Source: a virus. From it: a stretch of DNA of 64,000 bases. The notes beneath the pieces were generated by a model. That model made no database searches. It saw nothing but the letters and a program-made list of their open reading frames with translations, and was not told the origin of the DNA. Positions 38,075 through 62,016 of the stretch are shown in pieces. A program made the position numbers and the translations under genes. Where the stretch lies: IMG/VR virus record IMGVR_UViG_3300021476_000423, positions 32,001 through 96,000 of that record. One strand, 5' to 3'. Positions within the stretch are counted from its first letter, which is position 1, and the number at the start of each line of letters is the position of its first letter.

Positions 38075-38825
38075 TAGGATAGGTCACTTCAAAAGCCGAG
38101 ACAACGAAATATGGAGTGGTCAGACCATAATCGATAAAATCTCGTGCAAACTGACTCGTTCCTGTAAGGTCTATGTAATGGTATCCTGCTGTCATATTTA
38201 TGGCTATGTAGGGAATGACTGCTCCAACTGTAGTAAGTTGAGCATCATTGTCAAGAGGATGCCAATTGTAAACCAAGTAGACTTTGCTATCTATTGTGAT
38301 GGTAAGATTGACACCTTCCAACATTGAATGACCCGATATTAGAAAGTAAACGGTTCCTGCTTGTGTAAGAGAGAAAGTGTTGAAATATCCGGTGTCTGCC
38401 TCTTGAAAAGGCAGAACTTGGGTTATTGTGGATTCGGTTTGGGCCGTGGCTTGAACGGCTATATTGACTGACCATTCTTGAGCATTATTGAGAGTCATCC
38501 ATTGGAGAGTGTCGGTAGCGGTATAAGGCAAATTGATGATATCATTGAAAGTATTTGGTAGACTTCCATCTCTATGAAGCGGAGTTATGACTCTAGCCAC
38601 TTCGATATTGCCATCCATAACAGAGATGATTCTATCGTAGGCATCGTAAGTGGAGTGTCCACTGATATCTACGAGAGTTCCCTTAGATGTGTTAGGAAGA
38701 ATGGTTACAATATGAGAGTTGCCAGACAGAATAGGGACTGAAGGAGCAATCAATAACATAGCCAAATAGAGTGTCAGCAAAACCAACGGAATTTTGAGTT
38801 TGATAGGTAATTTGGACAATCTCAT
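38061..38825 (-). CDS. Membrane-anchored extracellular beta-rich protein
   Basis: N-terminal TM/signal segment and beta-rich remainder. Confidence 0.55.
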   Translation of the reverse strand: MRLSKLPIKLKIPLVLLTLYLAMLLIAPSVPILSGNSHIVTILPNTSKGTLVDISGHSTYDAYDRIISVMDGNIEVARVITPLHRDGSLPNTFNDIINLPYTATDTLQWMTLNNAQEWSVNIAVQATAQTESTITQVLPFQEADTGYFNTFSLTQAGTVYFLISGHSMLEGVNLTITIDSKVYLVYNWHPLDNDAQLTTVGAVIPYIAINMTAGYHYIDLTGTSQFARDFIDYGLTTPYFVVSAFEVTYPNVIP

Positions 38826-41197
38826 TTCTTCTTCACCTTATTCCATATCTCATCTTCTTCCGAGTCTCCCCGAACCTGTTCCCAATAAGAGAGCACCGTA
38901 TCTGAAGATACGACTTTGATACCCTCAAACTGGTCATTTGAGATAATCTTACCATCGTAATTCTCTTTGGGTATCAGAACATATTTAAGTCCATATCTCT
39001 TGGCTCCCCGAATCTTCTCATACACACCACCGATAGCCGAAATCTTGATGTCACCTGCCCTCTCTTCCTTCAATTCCATCGCTCCTGTCATGGCTATGTC
39101 CTGTCTCAATGGGACTGGTATCAACTCGAACTCGGACTTGAGTTTACCAGAGGCTAAATGGGCTTTCCAGCGTTTCTTGAACTCTCTTGGGTCTCCTAAC
39201 CACGACATAAGAGAGACAGTCATAGTGATGCCAGCACTTGGCCCATCTACCTTAGTCTGAGAGAACTTGATGTGAACATAGCAATCCTTCCCTATGTCTA
39301 CGCCGTATATCCTAAGTATGGCTGTTCTGACTTCGCGTTTCGAGTCCTGCACATCGGTTTCATCGCCTCTCACCACACCTGTAACCTCAAAATTGGCATA
39401 GTCGTGAGAATCTACGAATCTGAGGAAAGACTGCACCTGCATTACATCGCCAGCCCCTTCGCCGCCGTGGGGAGCCGCCACTACTGCCAATCCGTTGACC
39501 TGACCTACTTTGGTTCCAACATTCTCTACTAGCGAAATGGCTTCCTTCTTCTCCAATCGATGTTCGATAACCTGCTTCTCGATGGTTTCAGTGTAATGTT
39601 CGATAGCATCTTTCACATGACTGTCTCGAACTATAACATCACCATCCTTCCACGAGAGTTGTGATGACCTCTTGAGCACTTTGATGACGGCTCTGAACAT
39701 CAATTTGATGTGGTCTTTGTCGCTGGCTCTTTGTTTCACATATTCAAGTATGCGCTTTACACCTGCCGCTTCCATAGGTGGAAAGCCGAACCTGTAAAGT
39801 TCGTCCCTTACGACCTGTGCCACAAGCATCTCATTGAGAGGCGTGGCTTCTACCTCATCCTTCAGTGCGATGATGTCACCATAGTTCTCAAACCTGTCTC
39901 TAAGAGCAGGGAATTGATTGATAATGCTATGTGGGTCGTCCAATACATCCAAATTGCCAGCCGCAAAGAGAAAGAACATGGCCTTGACAGGTGGTGTTTG
40001 AATGTTCTGTCCTGCCGTTCCGCCACCGCCGCTAGTGGAAGTATTATCGGCTTGCTGTTGGATAGGAAACTCCCCATCTTCCATTGCAGTCAGAAGTTTG
40101 ATGGCTGATGATTGAGAGAGATTGCGAATCTCATCTATGTAGAGAATCTTCTTGTTGGCTTCATGAATCTTCCCTGCTTGAACTCTACGGTAAGGTGGTT
40201 TGGCCATTGCACCAGTTTGCCACGGAGACCACTCTATCGAGCCAAAGAGGGCGGCATCCGAAACCAGAGTGCAGTTGACATACATTTGAGTTGACTCAGG
40301 GTCATTATCCACAAGTAGATTGGGAATGTGTTTTTGTTCGTTACCCTGTTGTCCGAACATCCAACGCTGTTGCCAGAACATAATCATGATGAACATAGGA
40401 AAGCCTATCATGGTCATTCCCAAACCAAAGTAAACGCTGGCCGAATTCAACAGAGCAGACTCAAAATCCATGCCACCAAGCATATTCAATAACATCTTTC
40501 TAAGACCTAATGAAATCAACATAACCCCAATAAAGATGATAGTCCCAATGCCACCATAGAGCAAAGCGTTTTTCTTACGTCCTTTCTGTGTTTCCTTTAT
40601 TTCGGCATACTCAACTACCTTTTTGGCGGTTCCTGCTGGCTTGATATATCTCACATTGGCCTTGTAGCGATTGATGCGGTCTTCGCCAAGCATAACGTCT
40701 TCAAGTTCGATGCCCTCTTCCTTGTATTTGTCCTTCAGCGATTCGGCCATAACTTTGATAATGAGAGACTTACCAGTGCCGGGTTCACCCAACATAAGAA
40801 TGTTGTTAGTTGGTCTTTCACGCAAAACTGCCGAAAGTTTGACTCCGGCGGCTTCTTTCTTTTCCATCTCCTGAAGTTGTTTCAGAGTGCGAATCCATTC
40901 TATCTCACTAAGGTCAATCTTCTTGAGGGCGGCATCCTGACCGATAATCCAGTCCTTGAACTTCTCTGGCACACGAATGTCATCAGTAGTGTGCTTGGCT
41001 TTGGAGTCGAAGAATTTATCGGTGAAAGCCTTGGGGTCGCTACGCCATTTATCATCTCGAAGGTCGAACTCTGGCTTCAATATCTCCATGTCTCTCTGAA
41101 TCTTTTCCGTTGAAACTTTGATTTCACCAAAGTCATGGTCTTCCTTACCTTCTCTCAGTCGTCTCTTCACTCGTCTAAAGACGCTTGGGATTCTCAT
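38822..41197 (-). CDS. lonB: Archaeal-type membrane Lon protease (LonB)
   Basis: IIGQD, Walker A GEPGTGKS, two TM helices inserted in the AAA+ domain, Walker B YIDEI, GQVNGLAV, catalytic DGPSAG and GGVYEK. Confidence 0.9.
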   Translation of the reverse strand: MRIPSVFRRVKRRLREGKEDHDFGEIKVSTEKIQRDMEILKPEFDLRDDKWRSDPKAFTDKFFDSKAKHTTDDIRVPEKFKDWIIGQDAALKKIDLSEIEWIRTLKQLQEMEKKEAAGVKLSAVLRERPTNNILMLGEPGTGKSLIIKVMAESLKDKYKEEGIELEDVMLGEDRINRYKANVRYIKPAGTAKKVVEYAEIKETQKGRKKNALLYGGIGTIIFIGVMLISLGLRKMLLNMLGGMDFESALLNSASVYFGLGMTMIGFPMFIMIMFWQQRWMFGQQGNEQKHIPNLLVDNDPESTQMYVNCTLVSDAALFGSIEWSPWQTGAMAKPPYRRVQAGKIHEANKKILYIDEIRNLSQSSAIKLLTAMEDGEFPIQQQADNTSTSGGGGTAGQNIQTPPVKAMFFLFAAGNLDVLDDPHSIINQFPALRDRFENYGDIIALKDEVEATPLNEMLVAQVVRDELYRFGFPPMEAAGVKRILEYVKQRASDKDHIKLMFRAVIKVLKRSSQLSWKDGDVIVRDSHVKDAIEHYTETIEKQVIEHRLEKKEAISLVENVGTKVGQVNGLAVVAAPHGGEGAGDVMQVQSFLRFVDSHDYANFEVTGVVRGDETDVQDSKREVRTAILRIYGVDIGKDCYVHIKFSQTKVDGPSAGITMTVSLMSWLGDPREFKKRWKAHLASGKLKSEFELIPVPLRQDIAMTGAMELKEERAGDIKISAIGGVYEKIRGAKRYGLKYVLIPKENYDGKIISNDQFEGIKVVSSDTVLSYWEQVRGDSEEDEIWNKVKKK

Positions 41198-55319: not shown

Positions 55320-58300
55320 ATGGCCACAGTAGAAGTAGAAGCCTACCAACTCACTCCTGCGGAATATCAAGCAATCACCGACCACGCATGGGCTGGCGAA
55401 ACCTGCCCTGCTTGTCAGGGGCTTCTTCAAAGCATCCAACAGGATAAAGAAGGAAATACTTTCATCTATCCAAATAGTGACCAAGCCCAACACATGAGCG
55501 ACCTGTTCGGCTATTCTGCCGCACCCTATGGAGCCACAACTGGTTATCTCGACCCTGAAGACCCTTCATGGCAAAGGTCTGTAGAACACATTGCCGAGCG
55601 CCAGAAGGGGGGCGAACTTGGGACATTCGGGCCTCAATCGGGTATGGTGCGTGGAGAACCTACCAGAGACGAATGGCAGATTACCAGTTATCTTGATAGT
55701 CTTGGAGTTAAGTATGTTCACAAAATGAAGTTGGGTGAGATTGACCCCACTGAAACCGCAAAACCAAAGGTCGAATATGACATCTATCTGCCCCAATACC
55801 TCATCGCCATTGAAACCTCACCGGGCTGGCACATCGGCGGTAAGAGTCAACAGAGTTTTCCGCAAGTCATTGAGAACGACAAATACAAATCCAACTTTGC
55901 CCAAGAGCATGGCATCGACCTTGTTGCCTTCGACCCCTCAGAAGGGACTGAGAGTTTCATCAACAACGAATTGGTTCCACGGCTTCTGTCGGTGGGTGTG
56001 AAAGCCTATCAAGTGCCAAAGTCTGAAGTTATCTCTCAACATGAATGGAATGAACCTATGGGTGGTGCTCCTGCCTACCAAGAACAGGACGATTATTGGA
56101 GCCGCCAAAAGGCTCCATACCATTGTTCTGACCCCGGTTGCGGAAGACTTTTAGAATGGTGTGAAGATTGTGATTCTCATCATCATGCTGGCCCTTCTTG
56201 GATGCAAGAACACATTGAATTGCAAAAAGCCATGAAAACACCATATTTTGAGGAAGAAGAAAGTGAGATGATGTTGGCGTGTCCTCACTGTGGATGGGAA
56301 GGACGGTCTGATGAAGCACAAGAAAGCATCGGAAAACGTGGTAGACTTGAATATCAATGTCCTCAATGTGGTCAAAAAGATAGAGCAATGCGTATGGGAC
56401 AACTTTACTATGACCTTCATCCAGAGGAGTTGGGAAAGGTTAAAGAACCCAAACCTCATGACCCAACAGATTATTCATGGTATATGGCTCCCTATGAGAT
56501 GCCACAATCGGAACCCGAACCAGAACCACAACCTCAAACACAAATGGAACCAGACATCTCCTCTAGAACCGTGATGTCGCCCTATCAAGAAGCGAGTCTC
56601 AATCAAGGTCAGAATCTTCCTTTGTTCCCTAGTCGTGGAAAAGTCAACACAGTCAATCAAGGCGGCGAAGGGAAGGCTCTTGAGTTTCCTAATCACTTGT
56701 TTCATGAGGAAAACAAAGGTTACAGAATCGAAGGATATAGTAGTTCGGAAGTTACAGATGCTAAAAAGGTCATCGAATATGAAGTAAAAGAACTTGGCAA
56801 TATCCATGTTCTCATTGAAGCATTACAAGCCTTTGGCCTTGAGATACCACTTGAAAGTGACGAAGATGTAGAAGCGGGTCTCAATATTTTATTTGATGCT
56901 ATCGACAGAAAATTTGGGCCAGATGCTCAAGCCATTTGGTTGGTTGATACTGCTGAAGGTGCAAAAGAGCGTTATGGCTTTACCGCAGACGGCGAAACTC
57001 TTGGTGAACCTTCTGAATATGATGTTCCTTCAGATGCCGTTGTGATTAGCAATTTGGGGCCAGAAGAAGGAAAACTCTATCTTATGAAAAGTGAAGAAGA
57101 CCATTTTAACAGTGGTTTCGCACAAGTCGGAGAAGTAGGTGATTTCTTCCTGCATAAGAGTAATGCTACACAAGGAAGGGGGCAAGAGAGTCCGATGCAA
57201 ACGAATTACGGCTATCAGGAAGAATTACCATCTTGTCCTGATTGTGGTAATTCTGAAGTCTATTATGACAACCAAACCGAGAAATATAGATGTCCTGATT
57301 GTGGATGGCATGGTATTCCGAGACGCAAAGCCTACGGCTATTCAGAACCAATCAAACAAGAAGAATCAAATTTACTCACTAAGTTGGCCGATGCCTACAA
57401 CGCCGAGAACGGCTTCAAACCCATTGACGAATCAGTGAAGTCTAAGAAGTTAGATGAGAAAGTAGGAGAACAGGTCGCCGAAACATTTGATGCCGCCGAA
57501 CATGACCCTGCCGACCCCAAAGTGAAAGCGGCCTACGAAGCCCTGAAAGAAGAGTCATTGGCTCAATGGCAATTTGCGAAGGCGAATGGTTACAAACTCG
57601 AAGAGAGCAAAGAAGACCCTTACGACAACTACAAAGAGATGATGGAAGACCTCACAGAGAATCACACTCTCAAGGTATACTCTGAAGGCAATCCGCTACC
57701 GAAAGACCACCCTCTCGCAGAAGAATCGCCTGAAGGAGTTACCTACAACGTCATCTTTAGAGGAATCCACGACCTCTTCGGTCACGCCGCCCACGACAAC
57801 ACTTTCGACAACTTTGAGGGGGAGTTTGCCGCCTTCCTTTGCCATATGCAGATGTTCAGTGAAGAGGCCAGAGGAGCGATGGCCACCGAGACTTTGGCAC
57901 AGACAGAGTGGCAAGAATACATAGGTGGAGTGGGAAACTATCCCGACCAGAAAGCCATCTTCACAGAGATTCCATCAGAATTGATATCCACCGCTAAGAA
58001 AGAAGAAGAACAAGATACTTTGGAAAGAGATTTGGAATCGGAAATAAGTTCTTTTGCTCAACTCTACAGTTTCTCGACCCCCGAAGGCAATCCTATTCCT
58101 CAAAATACGGATGACCTATTAGAAGCAATTGGAACTTGGGGTTACATTGTAGGCGAAATTCCTGTTGAAGAAGCAAAAGGCGGCGATTTGATAGACACAT
58201 TTGGCGGATACACAACGGTTCCACCAATGGTTATCATCTATAAAGATGGACGAGTCGAACTTCCAAAAAGAGAAGAATACCCTACGACTGACCAGAGGTC

Positions 58301-58355
58301 AGAAAAGGGAAATCCTCTTGCGAAGTCACCAATGGTTTTTCGTCATGTAGGATAG
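55320..58355 (+). CDS. Large mosaic (polyvalent) protein: Vsr/DUF559-like nuclease, Zn ribbons and HDxxGH metallo-domain
   Basis: DEWQI..YL..LG...YDIYLP..LIAIE..GWH...DKYK; several CxxC; FRGIHDLFGH...GEFAAF..H...ARGAMATET. Confidence 0.6.
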   Translation: MATVEVEAYQLTPAEYQAITDHAWAGETCPACQGLLQSIQQDKEGNTFIYPNSDQAQHMSDLFGYSAAPYGATTGYLDPEDPSWQRSVEHIAERQKGGELGTFGPQSGMVRGEPTRDEWQITSYLDSLGVKYVHKMKLGEIDPTETAKPKVEYDIYLPQYLIAIETSPGWHIGGKSQQSFPQVIENDKYKSNFAQEHGIDLVAFDPSEGTESFINNELVPRLLSVGVKAYQVPKSEVISQHEWNEPMGGAPAYQEQDDYWSRQKAPYHCSDPGCGRLLEWCEDCDSHHHAGPSWMQEHIELQKAMKTPYFEEEESEMMLACPHCGWEGRSDEAQESIGKRGRLEYQCPQCGQKDRAMRMGQLYYDLHPEELGKVKEPKPHDPTDYSWYMAPYEMPQSEPEPEPQPQTQMEPDISSRTVMSPYQEASLNQGQNLPLFPSRGKVNTVNQGGEGKALEFPNHLFHEENKGYRIEGYSSSEVTDAKKVIEYEVKELGNIHVLIEALQAFGLEIPLESDEDVEAGLNILFDAIDRKFGPDAQAIWLVDTAEGAKERYGFTADGETLGEPSEYDVPSDAVVISNLGPEEGKLYLMKSEEDHFNSGFAQVGEVGDFFLHKSNATQGRGQESPMQTNYGYQEELPSCPDCGNSEVYYDNQTEKYRCPDCGWHGIPRRKAYGYSEPIKQEESNLLTKLADAYNAENGFKPIDESVKSKKLDEKVGEQVAETFDAAEHDPADPKVKAAYEALKEESLAQWQFAKANGYKLEESKEDPYDNYKEMMEDLTENHTLKVYSEGNPLPKDHPLAEESPEGVTYNVIFRGIHDLFGHAAHDNTFDNFEGEFAAFLCHMQMFSEEARGAMATETLAQTEWQEYIGGVGNYPDQKAIFTEIPSELISTAKKEEEQDTLERDLESEISSFAQLYSFSTPEGNPIPQNTDDLLEAIGTWGYIVGEIPVEEAKGGDLIDTFGGYTTVPPMVIIYKDGRVELPKREEYPTTDQRSEKGNPLAKSPMVFRHVG

Positions 58356-58689
58356 CAAGAACCTTTTTCAATAGAGTAACGTGCCAACATTTGCCTTTGC
58401 CCTTTGCCGCAGAATTGAACCAACCATCACACTCACAAGCGGCGATGTCATCAATCTTATTGTAGAAGACGTTGTATTTGCGCCAAGGAAAGCGTTTACT
58501 AGAGATTCTGGCAAACACTAAGTCACCATCTTGAAGAATATCGACTTCAGGATGGTTTGGGTCTTTCTGTGATTGGGATGCCAAGGACTTTCTTCCTCTT
58601 ATCGGCCTCTTCCTTTGTTTCGTAGGGCAGGATTGTGCCAAGGTCGTAAGGCGCTTGGTCATCAAACGGGCCGACAGTTTGGGGAGCAT
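58282..58689 (-). CDS. SWIM Zn-finger protein (start uncertain)
   Basis: ACECDGW...KCWH. Confidence 0.55.
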   Translation of the reverse strand: MLPKLSARLMTKRLTTLAQSCPTKQRKRPIRGRKSLASQSQKDPNHPEVDILQDGDLVFARISSKRFPWRKYNVFYNKIDDIAACECDGWFNSAAKGKGKCWHVTLLKKVLAILHDEKPLVTSQEDFPFLTSGQS

Positions 58690-58827
58690 TCCCGGCGATA
58701 GGCGCTACACCACCAAGGTCTTTCACGCCGCTATCCACGATGATGCACTCCTGTCCCATGTGCCGCAGAAGGTCATCTTCTGTCTTGATTTCGACTTTGT
58801 GCGTTATACAGGCTTTTCCGGTCATAC

Positions 58828-59496
58828 CTATTTGACCTCATCAGCCCCTAATAAAGATTCATCGGGAACCACAGTCTCAAAGGACTCAAGTGGTGGGATA
58901 ATGACCGTATTGGGGTTTTCCTTGGGTCTCAGATAAGACCACACTAGAACGTAGAAGACTGTAGCAATGGCCTTAGTCCCAACATTATTGGCCGGAATAC
59001 ACAAGTCCACCCCCTCAAGAGTGGCATCGGTATTGCAGATGGCAATGACAGGAATGCCCTGACTGGCCGCTTCATCCATTGCTCTGCGCTCAAATTTGAG
59101 GGGTTCCCCTATCTTAGTGGGCACTCCACAAGTAGGGTCAGCAACAAGCAAAACGTCACACTCCTGATAGTATTTCATCAGAGGATTACTCAGAGTTCCG
59201 GCATACATCCTACCCTGAAGAGTGGTAACTTTTGTTGCCATATGGAAGGATTTTATTCCATTCTCGAATCGTTTGTCGGTTGCGTAGACAACAGGACTTT
59301 GGCTCTTTCTCATGAACTTGCCAGCCACATCAAGTCTATCCAACACCAACTTGGGGTCTAGGATGGGATTGCCAGCCAAAGAGATTTCCTTGACAAAGGG
59401 TTTCATGTCTTTACTTACCTGTCCCTTTTTACCGAAGAGAATGCCAGTGGCTTCGAACACAGCCTCAGTAAGTGAGGCAGGTAATTCGAATGTCAT
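58828..59496 (-). CDS. rps2: Ribosomal protein uS2 homolog (archaeal type, divergent)
   Basis: DMKPFV, DRLDVAGKF, GRMYAGTLSNP, DVLLVADP, EAASQGIPVIAICNTD, VDLCIPANN.GTKAIA align with conserved archaeal/eukaryotic uS2 blocks. Confidence 0.88.
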   Translation of the reverse strand: MTFELPASLTEAVFEATGILFGKKGQVSKDMKPFVKEISLAGNPILDPKLVLDRLDVAGKFMRKSQSPVVYATDKRFENGIKSFHMATKVTTLQGRMYAGTLSNPLMKYYQECDVLLVADPTCGVPTKIGEPLKFERRAMDEAASQGIPVIAICNTDATLEGVDLCIPANNVGTKAIATVFYVLVWSYLRPKENPNTVIIPPLESFETVVPDESLLGADEVK

Positions 59497-59687
59497 CTGA
59501 CGATTCTCACCACTTTCTTAGGATTAGGATTCGGAATGACGATTTCAATAACGTGCCCTGTATCGTTGATAATGTGATAGTCGTAAATGATGATTTCATC
59601 ATTAGGTGGCATAATTCTCCTAATGTCATTTCCGCTTGGTGGAACAGCAGTTGCAACCTTGAGTTTATCGTTATTGGCTAACTTCAC
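59493..59687 (-). CDS. LANQ-motif small protein
   Basis: GTG start, MKLANNDKLKVA; ATGA-coupled to uS2. Confidence 0.6.
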   Translation of the reverse strand: MKLANNDKLKVATAVPPSGNDIRRIMPPNDEIIIYDYHIINDTGHVIEIVIPNPNPKKVVRIVR

Positions 59688-60894
59688 TCTTCTTCACTTT
59701 GTCTACGGCTTTGACAAGTTCATTGAGAAGCACTTCAGAATCGTTCACCAAACCCTTCGCAGACCCGGCTGGCTGAAGTCCACCACCATCTATGTAAGCA
59801 GGGTTGGCCGACCTAAAGACCTTTCCAATGTGAAGTCCCGGCTTCATCTTGTAAACGTTTGCACCACTAGAGGCAAGAACAGCCACTTCGGTTGGGCCAC
59901 GCCCTGAGATGTGAATCTCCACGCCGGGTATGTCATTGATGACAAACTGTGCCTTCTTGGTCATCCCAAGCCGTTTGCTGGCGAGAGCCGCACCAAGGTT
60001 CCATTTGTGACTTAGAATGGTCACATCAAAATCGGGATAGTGGAGTAGAGTAGAATTACCCTTACCTTCGGCCTTGGAATGCTCCTTCTCCCATTCGGCT
60101 TGAAGCAGAAGCAGAACCTTTGTGTTGTTGTTCTTACCGTCCTTAAAGAGTGGAGTCTTCTCAATCTCATCCTTTGTGCCCAACAGTCGGTTGAACTCAA
60201 TCCAATTGGAAATCCAATCCATCTCCTTCATGGCGGCAAACGCGAGTAGCGGAGCGTTGTCAAATAGCATTCGGCGTGGAACATGAAGTAGTTTGGCGTA
60301 GAAATTGAGCAAGCCAAAGTCGTAGGATGCACCATCCTTGGTAGACATGAACAAACCAGTGAGGTAGGGCGAAACAGAGAGAAGTTGGGAATAGAGAGCA
60401 TAACCTCTCGGATTCCTTTTGGGGTCTGTCGCAACATCGCCCACTAATCCGATGAGTGCCCATCTAACATTGATAGGAACCTTCTCCCTAAACAATTCAT
60501 AGGCCAGTCCTGTTGTGCAAGACTCGGTAGTGGAATCATAGAAGAACTTGTCCTTGAACATCGACCTCAGATTGGAGAGTTTGACCTGATATTCGTTCAT
60601 GGTTTCAGGAGTCTCAACTATGGGGTCGGGAGGATGATTATCCAAAATCGTGACACCTGCTCCTGTTCCAAGGATGTCTAAAGCCACATCCAGCATCTCA
60701 AGACCGCTTCCAAGGTCAAGGAGATAGACTTGCTTGGGGTCGTAAGAAAGAATCTTCTGAACATCCTGCTTCTGAACACCAAAGATGTTCCACTTCTGAA
60801 ATAGGGTGGTAGCATCGGGGTAAGCCGACGCTACAATCTTTGCGGCGCAGAGTCCATCAGAGTCTTCGTCTGAAAAGATAAGAGTATCAACCAT
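59671..60894 (-). CDS. DHH-family (RecJ/Cdc45-like) protein
   Basis: DEDSDG, LLDLG, LDNH (DHH variant), GLVGD, SGRG and GGGL (GGGH variant). Confidence 0.75.
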   Translation of the reverse strand: MVDTLIFSDEDSDGLCAAKIVASAYPDATTLFQKWNIFGVQKQDVQKILSYDPKQVYLLDLGSGLEMLDVALDILGTGAGVTILDNHPPDPIVETPETMNEYQVKLSNLRSMFKDKFFYDSTTESCTTGLAYELFREKVPINVRWALIGLVGDVATDPKRNPRGYALYSQLLSVSPYLTGLFMSTKDGASYDFGLLNFYAKLLHVPRRMLFDNAPLLAFAAMKEMDWISNWIEFNRLLGTKDEIEKTPLFKDGKNNNTKVLLLLQAEWEKEHSKAEGKGNSTLLHYPDFDVTILSHKWNLGAALASKRLGMTKKAQFVINDIPGVEIHISGRGPTEVAVLASSGANVYKMKPGLHIGKVFRSANPAYIDGGGLQPAGSAKGLVNDSEVLLNELVKAVDKVKKSEVSQ

Positions 60895-60905
60895 GTGATT
60901 GACCT

Positions 60906-61601
60906 CTATATCGAGACACTTCCCAAGTTGCCGTAGGGTTCCAACTTCTTGTGGACGAACTCAAGCACATCGACATCAATTTTGTTGTGCTTCATCACAT
61001 ACTTGATGCTCTTGCTGAGACCGTATCCTGCAAGAATCCAGTCGTCTGGATTGATTTCTGTCTTCTGCTCTGGTGCGCCCAAGAACTTGGCTATCACATC
61101 CAACCTATTGGAGTGGAGAGCCAACTTATACTTGGCCAGAAGGTAGGTGTCCAGACCAAACATCTGTCTGTAGACGGGGAATTTGATTCCATACTTCAGG
61201 AATCGGGTTCTGAGGAATCTTACGTCAAGTCCACGCTGGATGGTTCCGTAGTGGCATACGATGATGTCATACTGTGGAAGTATCTTAGCAAGGTCTCTGA
61301 GAATCCGGCGGTCAGTGACCACCTTTCCCAACTTCTTGCTCAGTGCTACATCTGCTTCAGTGATAGCCTCTTGATAGTAGATTTTCTTGTCCCTCTCTTT
61401 TGCAGTCCATGAAATGCACACTCCAAAGTCTGCGGCTAACTGGCTCACTTCTATATCTAGATAGAGAACCTTCGCATCCTTCAGTCGGGCCTTTTCCCAA
61501 CACGCTAAATGTGTGCAAGCATCGCCACCATCCTTGCAAGTGAAGACTCTGTGTCTATGTTCACAGATGAAAGACCTTATGTCGAGTTTCTTTGTTGTCA
61601 T
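60906..61601 (-). CDS. DEDD/RNase H-like 3'-5' exonuclease
   Basis: YLDIE, HYG...DVRFL, DTY and HNKIDV. Confidence 0.8.
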   Translation of the reverse strand: MTTKKLDIRSFICEHRHRVFTCKDGGDACTHLACWEKARLKDAKVLYLDIEVSQLAADFGVCISWTAKERDKKIYYQEAITEADVALSKKLGKVVTDRRILRDLAKILPQYDIIVCHYGTIQRGLDVRFLRTRFLKYGIKFPVYRQMFGLDTYLLAKYKLALHSNRLDVIAKFLGAPEQKTEINPDDWILAGYGLSKSIKYVMKHNKIDVDVLEFVHKKLEPYGNLGSVSI

Positions 61602-61605
61602 CTTT

Positions 61606-62016
61606 TTACCTCTTCACTACGATGCTTCCTTTGGGCACTATATAGGTGTTTTTGAGATAATGGATTAGAATGTCACATTTTACTCTCTTTATCTTGAGAT
61701 ATGGTTGTAAAGCATAACAAATACGAAGAACGTCAATCTTCGCTTGAACTCGCCACTCAATTTGGGCATGGGGATTTGAACCACTATAGCCCTTTCCCAC
61801 AAAATATCTCTTTGGCCGAAAATAGATATGACCTGCCGCAAAGAAACGCTGTATCTCCTTCATAAGAGCCATATTTGTAGGCGTATGTATAACTGCAAAT
61901 TTCACTGTGCCCTTTTTATGGGCATATGTTTTCCCTTTGTAGTGGGAACTACTATTACTTAAAAAGAAACTGCCTTCACCATCCATGAGACCTGCTATAT
62001 ATTGAGCAGAAAGCAC
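61606..62016 (-). mobile_element. Free-standing single-motif LAGLIDADG homing endonuclease
   Basis: YIAGLMDGEGSF; LQPYLKIKR; locally AT-richer. Confidence 0.85.

Follow-up and report, generated by a model that had tools for sequence, protein, structure and literature searches.

A remodelled archaeal-type ribosomal protein uS2 encoded as a core gene by a small lineage of tailed viruses

The stretch of viral DNA analysed here (the window; 64,000 nucleotides) comprises bases 32001-96000 of the 106,907-bp IMG/VR record IMGVR_UViG_3300021476_000423 and contains a gene for ribosomal protein uS2. This gene is encoded by the virus and is neither host DNA nor an assembly artefact, because its gene order is conserved, genomes bounded by direct terminal repeats (DTRs) are available for the lineage, an independent assembly spans the region, and no cellular copy exceeds 37% identity. 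It is a selectively maintained core gene of a small lineage of tailed, HK97-type archaeal viruses with genomes of about 91-107 kb. The initial annotation, made from the letters alone, had described a divergent uS2 of viral origin, a description now backed by synteny in complete viral genomes, by purifying selection and by a distinct clade that is absent from cellular genomes. The gene and its most distinctive feature are:

58828..59496, minus strand: virus-encoded archaeal-type uS2, 222 amino acids (aa), identified by PF00318, phmmer against PDB sequences, AlphaFold2 (AF2), Foldseek and syntenic orthologues
59092..59127, minus strand: lineage-specific 12-aa insertion G124-F135 in the loop after D120-P121, seen in the phmmer gap, the clade alignment and the AF2 model

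Identity and fold

The open reading frame (ORF) is uninterrupted over the 222 codons and encodes a full-length archaeal-type uS2, whose membership of the family is established by sequence, profile and fold. The Pfam profile Ribosomal_S2 (PF00318) is matched at 38.4 bits against a cut-off of 26.1, with only residues 136-185 in the Pfam-aligned part. The best phmmer matches among PDB sequences are the archaeal S2P proteins of Pyrococcus and Thermococcus (1e-24 to 1e-23, residues 16-190/207), and other archaeal and eukaryotic uS2/SA proteins rank after them. The profile check proposed in the initial annotation therefore found uS2 by both PF00318 and phmmer, and the reading of a full-length archaeal-type uS2 within a viral operon stands.

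The structural model leads to the same family. Built with 114 homologues, the AF2 model has a mean predicted local distance difference test score (pLDDT) of 93.5 and a predicted template modelling (TM) score (pTM) of 0.89, and the globular part is confident throughout. The top 50 Foldseek matches in the PDB are all uS2/SA, with E-values down to 1e-19 and TM-scores of 0.8 by query length and about 0.9, up to 0.92, by target length. They are headed by Archaeoglobus fulgidus S2P (1vi5/1vi6), the Sulfolobus solfataricus 30S (9fhl_B) and the Pyrococcus furiosus 70S.

A comparison with these cellular proteins shows how much has been kept and how much has changed. The viral protein shares their length class and alpha/beta fold (target-length TM-score about 0.9, root-mean-square deviation about 2.3 Å) along with the motifs GxxxG, R-x3-G-x3-N, DP, EA, IP, IPxNN and the C-terminal FE. 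It is, however, only 26-37% identical to them, carries the 12-aa insertion after DP, has 26 of 64 conserved positions replaced, and forms a separate, long-branched clade whose gene lies in a replication-type operon rather than in the context of cellular rps2.

A remodelled surface

The insertion is defined by a 12-column gap in Pyrococcus S2P opposite viral residues G124-F135, immediately past D120-P121, in the phmmer alignment. It is kept across the viral clade with G124, P126 and K128 invariant, and is modelled as an ordered loop, the blocks spanning residues 121-140 reaching a pLDDT of 95-97. Insertions of variable length occur at this same site in all viral-type relatives and in no canonical uS2. 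The viral protein consequently lacks the short loop that joins the DP motif to the next helix in canonical uS2, a spacing that we take to be that of the second uS2 signature. An insertion of roughly 12 aa after DP had been noted from the sequence, and the alignment bears this out.

Substitutions were judged against 89 cellular archaeal uS2 sequences, in which 64 alignment columns are conserved at ≥80%. At position 20, within GILFG, the viral protein has L where 88 of the 89 cellular sequences have H, R or Q; position 97 is M rather than the F found in 89/89, and position 99 is A rather than the P found in 88/89. The altered GILFG and GRMYAGT blocks of the initial annotation are therefore genuine departures from the cellular consensus. 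The viral core clade retains 38 of the 64 columns and has replaced 26, with the caveat that phmmer and MAFFT differ by one residue at about positions 72-80, so that some apparent losses there may be alignment artefacts. Among the retained columns are G18, G22, M31, G42, R54, R96, G100, N104, D120-P121, E142-A143, P149, D164, I167-P168, N170-N171, A178, L184 and F206-E207.

In most of the replaced columns the clade has settled on a single new residue (K27V, L43N, A59G, Q138R, N158A, L177I and W182Y), while R174 has become A or T. F97 and P99 are changed in this subclade, and Q138, R174 and W182 in all members (98-100% conserved in cells). The basic residues K27 and R174 have been lost and K128 (within the insertion), R137 and R138 are newly invariant; the isoelectric points are alike, with a median of 5.1 for viral and 5.5 for cellular proteins. 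Because the replaced positions are mostly clade-fixed and the lost basic residues are accompanied by new invariant ones, this pattern indicates a rewired surface under selection, not decay. The insertion sits among the most strongly conserved motifs of uS2, which lie together along the C-terminal edge of the beta-sheet, presumably the side that faces the rRNA.

Proposed function on the host ribosome

In archaea the mRNA exit chamber is closed by uS2 and eS17, and Escherichia coli ribosomes that lack bS1/uS2 favour leaderless mRNAs (PMC7531240). Viral ribosomal proteins tend to be solvent-exposed and exchangeable and can enter host ribosomes, incorporation having been shown experimentally only for viral bS21 and bL12, in E. 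coli (PMC6375957). Against this background the viral uS2 probably occupies the uS2 site on the host 30S subunit and modifies that end of the exit chamber, a reading to which we assign a probability of about 55%.

The proposed course of events would begin when an ancestor of the viral lineage captured uS2 from an archaeon, the likeliest donor being a host of the Nitrososphaeria line; the lineage would have kept it since as a core gene. The gene would be transcribed as part of a replication and nucleic-acid-processing operon (exonuclease, DHH protein, uS2, Cys/His protein) and translated from a Shine-Dalgarno (SD)-like site. The remodelled face, made up of conserved loops with the 12-aa insertion, the loss of K27, R174, F97 and P99 and the gain of K128, R137 and R138, would then change the subunit's handling of mRNA 5' regions or of factors that dock there. 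The outcome would be a gain for viral translation or an escape from host control of ribosomes.

Replacement of host uS2 with a resulting bias in initiation, as the initial annotation had suggested, is plausible, because uS2 sits where the archaeal exit chamber ends and, in E. coli, ribosomes deprived of bS1/uS2 preferentially translate leaderless mRNAs. A more specific proposal is tentative: viral uS2 on a fraction of 30S subunits might create virus-specialised ribosomes, in which the balance between SD-led and leaderless initiation is shifted or a host shut-off or hibernation factor is evaded. The mRNA-exit end of such ribosomes would be altered by the insertion loop and by the rewired basic face, perhaps with a contribution from the small Cys/His protein that is transcribed along with uS2.

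The strongest competitor to a place on the ribosome is an exapted uS2 fold that works elsewhere, either as a decoy or inhibitor that binds late pre-30S particles, a uS2-binding host factor or RNA, or in a role within the replication module. Such a protein might block maturation of host ribosomes or sequester a regulator. Several observations favour this reading, the first of which also counts against a place on the ribosome: the long branch, with about 40% of the positions conserved in cells replaced, basic and aromatic ones among them; the ordered 12-aa insertion among the loops that bear the most conserved uS2 motifs; and the constant linkage of the gene to a RecJ/Cdc45-like DHH protein and an exonuclease, not to translation genes. 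Yet the fold and hallmark motifs are kept at nearly 100% across viruses that differ by about 45% in sequence (G18, G22, M31, R96, G100, N104, D120-P121, E142-A143, P149, D164, I167-P168, N170-N171 and F206-E207), as would be expected if the protein still used its ancestral binding site. The lost basic residues are matched by the fixed K128, R137 and R138, which suggests that the RNA-binding face was rewired, not abandoned, and both viral proteins so far tested, bS21 and bL12, enter ribosomes (PMC6375957). A role off the ribosome is accordingly considered unlikely, although it is the alternative that survives best.

Lineage, retention and selection

The distribution of uS2 among related viruses, which occur in cave and peat-type samples, is that of a core gene. 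Four other IMG/VR contigs (37-106 kb) and 12 Joint Genome Institute (JGI) metagenome contigs carry an orthologue (53-64% identity) within an identical arrangement of genes: C1 peptidase, 206-aa protein, RNase H-fold exonuclease, 407-aa DHH protein, uS2, 92-aa protein, 135-aa protein and a large protein on the opposite strand. The IMG/VR relatives came from an alignment query, a single-protein scan with the uS2 of the window having returned none. Two independent probes recover the same set. The 407-aa gene returns exactly the four uS2-carrying IMG/VR genomes, and a profile of the terminase returns 13 contigs at 57-62% identity in the large terminase subunit (TerL), of which the four long enough to span the region are the uS2 carriers. 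The next match to the terminase profile is a single distant 94-kb genome at 41%, and no further one exceeds 26%. In this distant genome, whose portal is 53% identical, uS2 also bears an insertion, but it has diverged very far (32% identity) and is encoded elsewhere in the genome. In all, uS2 is present in six of six long genomes of the terminase lineage.

An exhaustive profile search of 1.84 billion representatives gave 10 clusters at E ≤1e-30, beyond which the matches level off into cellular uS2 proteins. Identities to the query fall into two separate groups, 53-70% for the viral type and ≤37% for cellular proteins, with none between. No viral-type copy was found in cells, the best match among 185,579 species-representative genomes reaching 37% identity. 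The sequences with an insertion after DP (P0001-P0017, P0019, P0022, P0023, P0037 and P0059) form one clade (Shimodaira-Hasegawa approximate likelihood ratio test, SH-aLRT, 98).

A wider divergent uS2-like set within these sequences (P0012-P0017, P0019, P0022, P0023, P0037 and P0059; locus L137:8001-8657) has insertions that differ in length and sequence at the same post-DP site. One member, P0037, comes from a 94-kb viral genome distantly related to this virus. Another, P0016, is a divergent insertion-type uS2 on a 161.9-kb contig with no IMG/VR match.

Selection was measured as the ratio of nonsynonymous to synonymous substitution rates (dN/dS, Nei-Gojobori), a check that had been proposed with the initial annotation. 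The two unsaturated orthologue pairs gave 0.13 (dS 0.79) and 0.14 (dS 0.91), values that denote purifying selection; the gene of the window itself is not among these pairs, its comparisons being saturated at synonymous sites. The alternative that uS2 is a functionless passenger, captured and drifting towards loss, could appeal to the strong divergence from cellular uS2, but it is highly improbable given a dN/dS of about 0.13, a reading frame intact in every clade member, a confidently predicted fold, and retention of the gene across viruses whose synonymous sites are saturated.

Viral genome and assembly

The genome that surrounds uS2 is that of a tailed virus. It encodes a portal, a HerA/A32-type ATPase, an RNA ligase, PolB, a Rad51-like protein, a tail tube, a LonB-like protease, a gpA-type large terminase and an HK97-type major capsid protein (genome position 102 kb), which confirms the viral setting originally proposed. 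The uS2 gene lies at genome position 90.8 kb, between TerL (about 74-76 kb) and the HK97 capsid gene, 15 kb from the nearest end of the record and with virion genes on both flanks. No integrase or host-like genes were seen at either genome end. Among some 45 larger ORFs of the genome scanned against Pfam there are no other ribosomal or RNA polymerase (RNAP) genes, so the observation that uS2 has no such neighbours holds for these ORFs. Rfam and tRNA scans of the 64-kb window gave no match.

An independent Logan contig of 15.5 kb, from a cave-metagenome run that is probably the source sample, spans window positions 57000-61500 with 0 differences. Two relatives (105.7 and 105.3 kb) have DTRs and a CheckV completeness of 100%. 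A chimeric host contig, which had been raised as a concern at the outset, is contradicted both by this spanning contig and by the synteny in other viruses.

Although IMG/VR labels the record a provirus and the original contig (110,754 bp) exceeds it by 3.8 kb, the idea that a cellular uS2 entered by chimeric assembly or as the host flank of a mis-trimmed provirus is exceedingly improbable, for the gene lies well inside the record amid virion genes, keeps its position in 16 other viral contigs, two of them complete and DTR-bounded, is joined to its neighbours across both junctions in the independent assembly, and has no cellular counterpart above 37% identity among 185,579 species representatives. 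Host contamination and a neutral passenger are both effectively excluded.

The LonB-like protease of this genome is an AAA+ protein with Lon_C and an archaeal LonB lid, encoded at window positions 38822-41197 (minus strand) among virion genes.

Origin and likely host

Two trees of 112 and 102 sequences (IQ-TREE, LG+C20), comprising named Nitrososphaeria and samples of Halobacteriota, Thermoplasmatota and Thermoproteota, place the viral uS2 proteins in a monophyletic clade (support 98-100) on a long stem. A split with strong support (SH-aLRT 99 and 100 in the two trees) puts this clade together with the Nitrososphaeria, and its attachment point is among deep Nitrososphaeria lineages, not within a modern family. 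The best cellular tblastn matches are overwhelmingly Nitrososphaeria, and N155 (CN[ST], as opposed to CDT in most other archaea) is common to the viral clade and most Nitrososphaeria.

Approximately unbiased (AU) tests tell against a firm placement: neither a grouping with other Thermoproteota (difference in log-likelihood 18.2, p 0.148) nor a position on the euryarchaeal side (15.2, p 0.25) is rejected, the power of these tests being limited by the long stem. Because these placements survive, a Nitrososphaeria origin of the viral uS2 is favoured rather than proven. The use of uS2 phylogeny as a host indicator, which the initial annotation had recommended, has succeeded in so far as the clade groups with Nitrososphaeria and fallen short in that the alternatives are not rejected.

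Other genes add little. The LonB-like protease has only weak, very divergent matches, in 61 Nitrososphaeria genomes, and is uninformative as a host marker. The sole viral tRNA gene, tRNA-Lys(CTT), lies outside the window (genome C1:10215-10292, L138) and matches 110 of 121 Nitrososphaeria genomes, over longer stretches, versus 20 of 81 Thermoplasmatota, a weak hint. No near-identical host match to it was found among the searched genomes, and it provides no evidence of an att site. A 418-aa protein beside the capsid module (C1:104194-105450; L140:8194-9450, minus strand) has a TackOD1 match below the cut-off (E 6.8e-4), a faint link to Thaumarchaeota. From these sequence comparisons a host among the Nitrososphaeria, that is, archaea of the ammonia-oxidiser type, is probable, at about two chances in three.

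Two equal-scoring uS2 copies lie 7.6 kb apart on one contig of a Methanophagales (ANME-1-type) metagenome-assembled genome (G001:C13:117476-117970 and 125083-125577; L047/L086). The pair may reflect duplication of the region, faulty assembly or a second copy carried by a mobile element.

Operon and expression signals

The neighbours of uS2 and the signals at its start are:

59506..59511, minus strand: SD-like GGTGAG, 9 nucleotides (nt) upstream of the uS2 ATG, read from the sequence; the genome-wide SD peak is at -16..-11
59493..59687, minus strand: 64-aa mini-ORF (MKLANNDKL...) whose stop overlaps the uS2 start (ATGA), from ORF reading
59671..60894, minus strand: 407-aa DHH-family (RecJ/GAN/Cdc45-like) protein, matching PHROG 4771 (DHH phosphoesterase) at 3e-4
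60906..61601, minus strand: 231-aa RNase H-fold 3'-5' exonuclease of the same operon, matching PF13482 and PHROG 403 ('DNA polymerase exonuclease subunit', 3.6e-17)
58547..58825, minus strand: 92-aa small protein that starts 2 nt after the uS2 stop, a conserved neighbour

The 407-aa DHH protein also has a weak match to Thermococcus kodakarensis GAN (5ghr) and P. furiosus RecJ. Its gene lies upstream of uS2 in all four IMG/VR genomes and all 12 metagenome loci, and in some of these the two genes are separated by a small unrelated ORF; the 64-aa mini-ORF of this genome is not conserved at this position in related viruses. Downstream, the 92-aa gene follows uS2 in all five viruses. Its product has invariant C6, H9, H22 and C27, a possible zinc site, and a basic C-terminal KRRK tail. 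Neither it nor the 206-aa neighbour matches a Pfam or PDB family, and a complex prediction for uS2 with the 92-aa protein scored 0.00, which speaks neither for nor against binding.

Across the whole genome, upstream signals form two sharply positioned classes. TATA-like boxes stand at -34..-27 from the ORF start in 24 of 172 genes, a distance that fits first genes transcribed without a leader, and SD-like motifs stand at -16..-11 in 50 of 172. Among public sequencing runs, no RNA run was listed as containing this virus. The presence of both classes suggests that the virus uses both archaeal initiation modes, and uS2, with its SD-like site, is by these signals an SD-type internal operon gene. 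Its partners, an RNase H-fold exonuclease and a RecJ/GAN-like DHH protein, point to a replication-phase operon, not a late one. The initial annotation had offered leaderless viral late mRNAs as the beneficiaries of a viral uS2. A simple bias of this kind is not specifically supported, because both modes appear to be used and uS2 itself is of the SD type in a replication-type operon.

Two further ORFs of this region deserve mention. A LAGLIDADG homing endonuclease ORF (61606-62016, minus strand; PF00961, 5.8e-8) lies between the exonuclease and 206-aa genes in this genome only. In the relatives (L002-L005 and L141) these two genes are adjacent, and this absence suggests a recent insertion of a free-standing homing endonuclease. 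On the opposite strand, a 1011-aa acidic multi-domain protein (55320-58355, plus strand) has an HNH/homing-endonuclease-like segment at residues ~115-230 (PHROGs 9084 and 559), several zinc ribbons and a C-terminal PHROG 3170 domain; it is conserved in relatives with variable length.

Comparison with known systems

A survey of viral ribosomal proteins by Mizuno 2019 lists 14, including bS21, bL12, bL9, bL31, bL33, bS6, uS9 and uS15, and no uS2 (PMC6375957). The viral uS2 resembles these phage proteins in having a host homologue, in being under purifying selection, in its peripheral place on the ribosome and in the proposed replacement of the host copy. In contrast to them, as genes of bacterial viruses that are mostly small and sporadic, it is a universal protein of 222 aa in an archaeal virus, strongly remodelled and a core gene of its lineage.

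Among archaeal viruses, eL21 (L21e) in Hafunaviridae was called the first ribosomal protein (Liu 2021, PMC8651126), and bL19 was later described in a Bathyarchaeia virus with L21e stated as the only earlier case (Duan 2023, PMC10541130). These viruses are likewise tailed and carry a ribosomal protein homologue of putative function. Their proteins, however, belong to the large subunit and their virus groups are different; uS2 is not mentioned in either report. A 2026 provirus survey lists S6e, L15, L15e and L30. The statement in the initial annotation that the viral ribosomal proteins reported so far are mostly small and exchangeable, with uS2 not among them, agrees with Mizuno 2019, Liu 2021 and Duan 2023.

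The nearest precedent, and the only one found on an archaeal mobile element, is the rpS2 of some Borgs, giant extrachromosomal elements of Methanoperedens (Al-Shayeb 2022, PMC9605863, Extended Data Fig. 9B). Here too an archaeal mobile element has its own uS2, one that groups in trees next to the uS2 of the host lineage. Borgs, unlike the present elements, are not viruses, having no capsid or packaging genes, and rpS2 is occasional in them, their usual ribosomal protein gene being rpL11; the two are set side by side by description only.

Database searches agree with this picture. PHROGs v4 has no family that matches the viral uS2, tblastn against 50,697 GenBank phage and archaeal-virus records gave no match, and the terminase is only 24-28% identical to that of any deposited phage. 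A full-text search of the literature likewise uncovered no account of a viral uS2; its coverage lacks subscription journals, so priority is not guaranteed.

Significance

Ribosomal proteins have been described in viruses before, but nearly all of them are small and of bacterial type, and the two or three cases reported from archaeal viruses all belong to the large subunit. A universal small-subunit protein of 222 aa, kept as a core gene under strong purifying selection and with a remodelled face, would extend viral tinkering with the ribosome to the mRNA-exit side of the archaeal 30S, and suggests that these viruses re-fit the host ribosome near the mRNA exit.

Archaea use both leadered and leaderless translation, and in bacteria the status of uS2 influences the choice between the two. 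For these reasons the viral protein offers a natural variant with which the relation between ribosome composition and initiation mode can be tested in archaea. For a virus group without cultured relatives, uS2 also serves as a marker and as a clue to the host, the Nitrososphaeria being key nitrifiers. If the viral uS2 does replace the host protein on a fraction of 30S subunits and so creates virus-specialised ribosomes, it would represent specialisation of the ribosome by a virus in archaea by means of a universal core protein.

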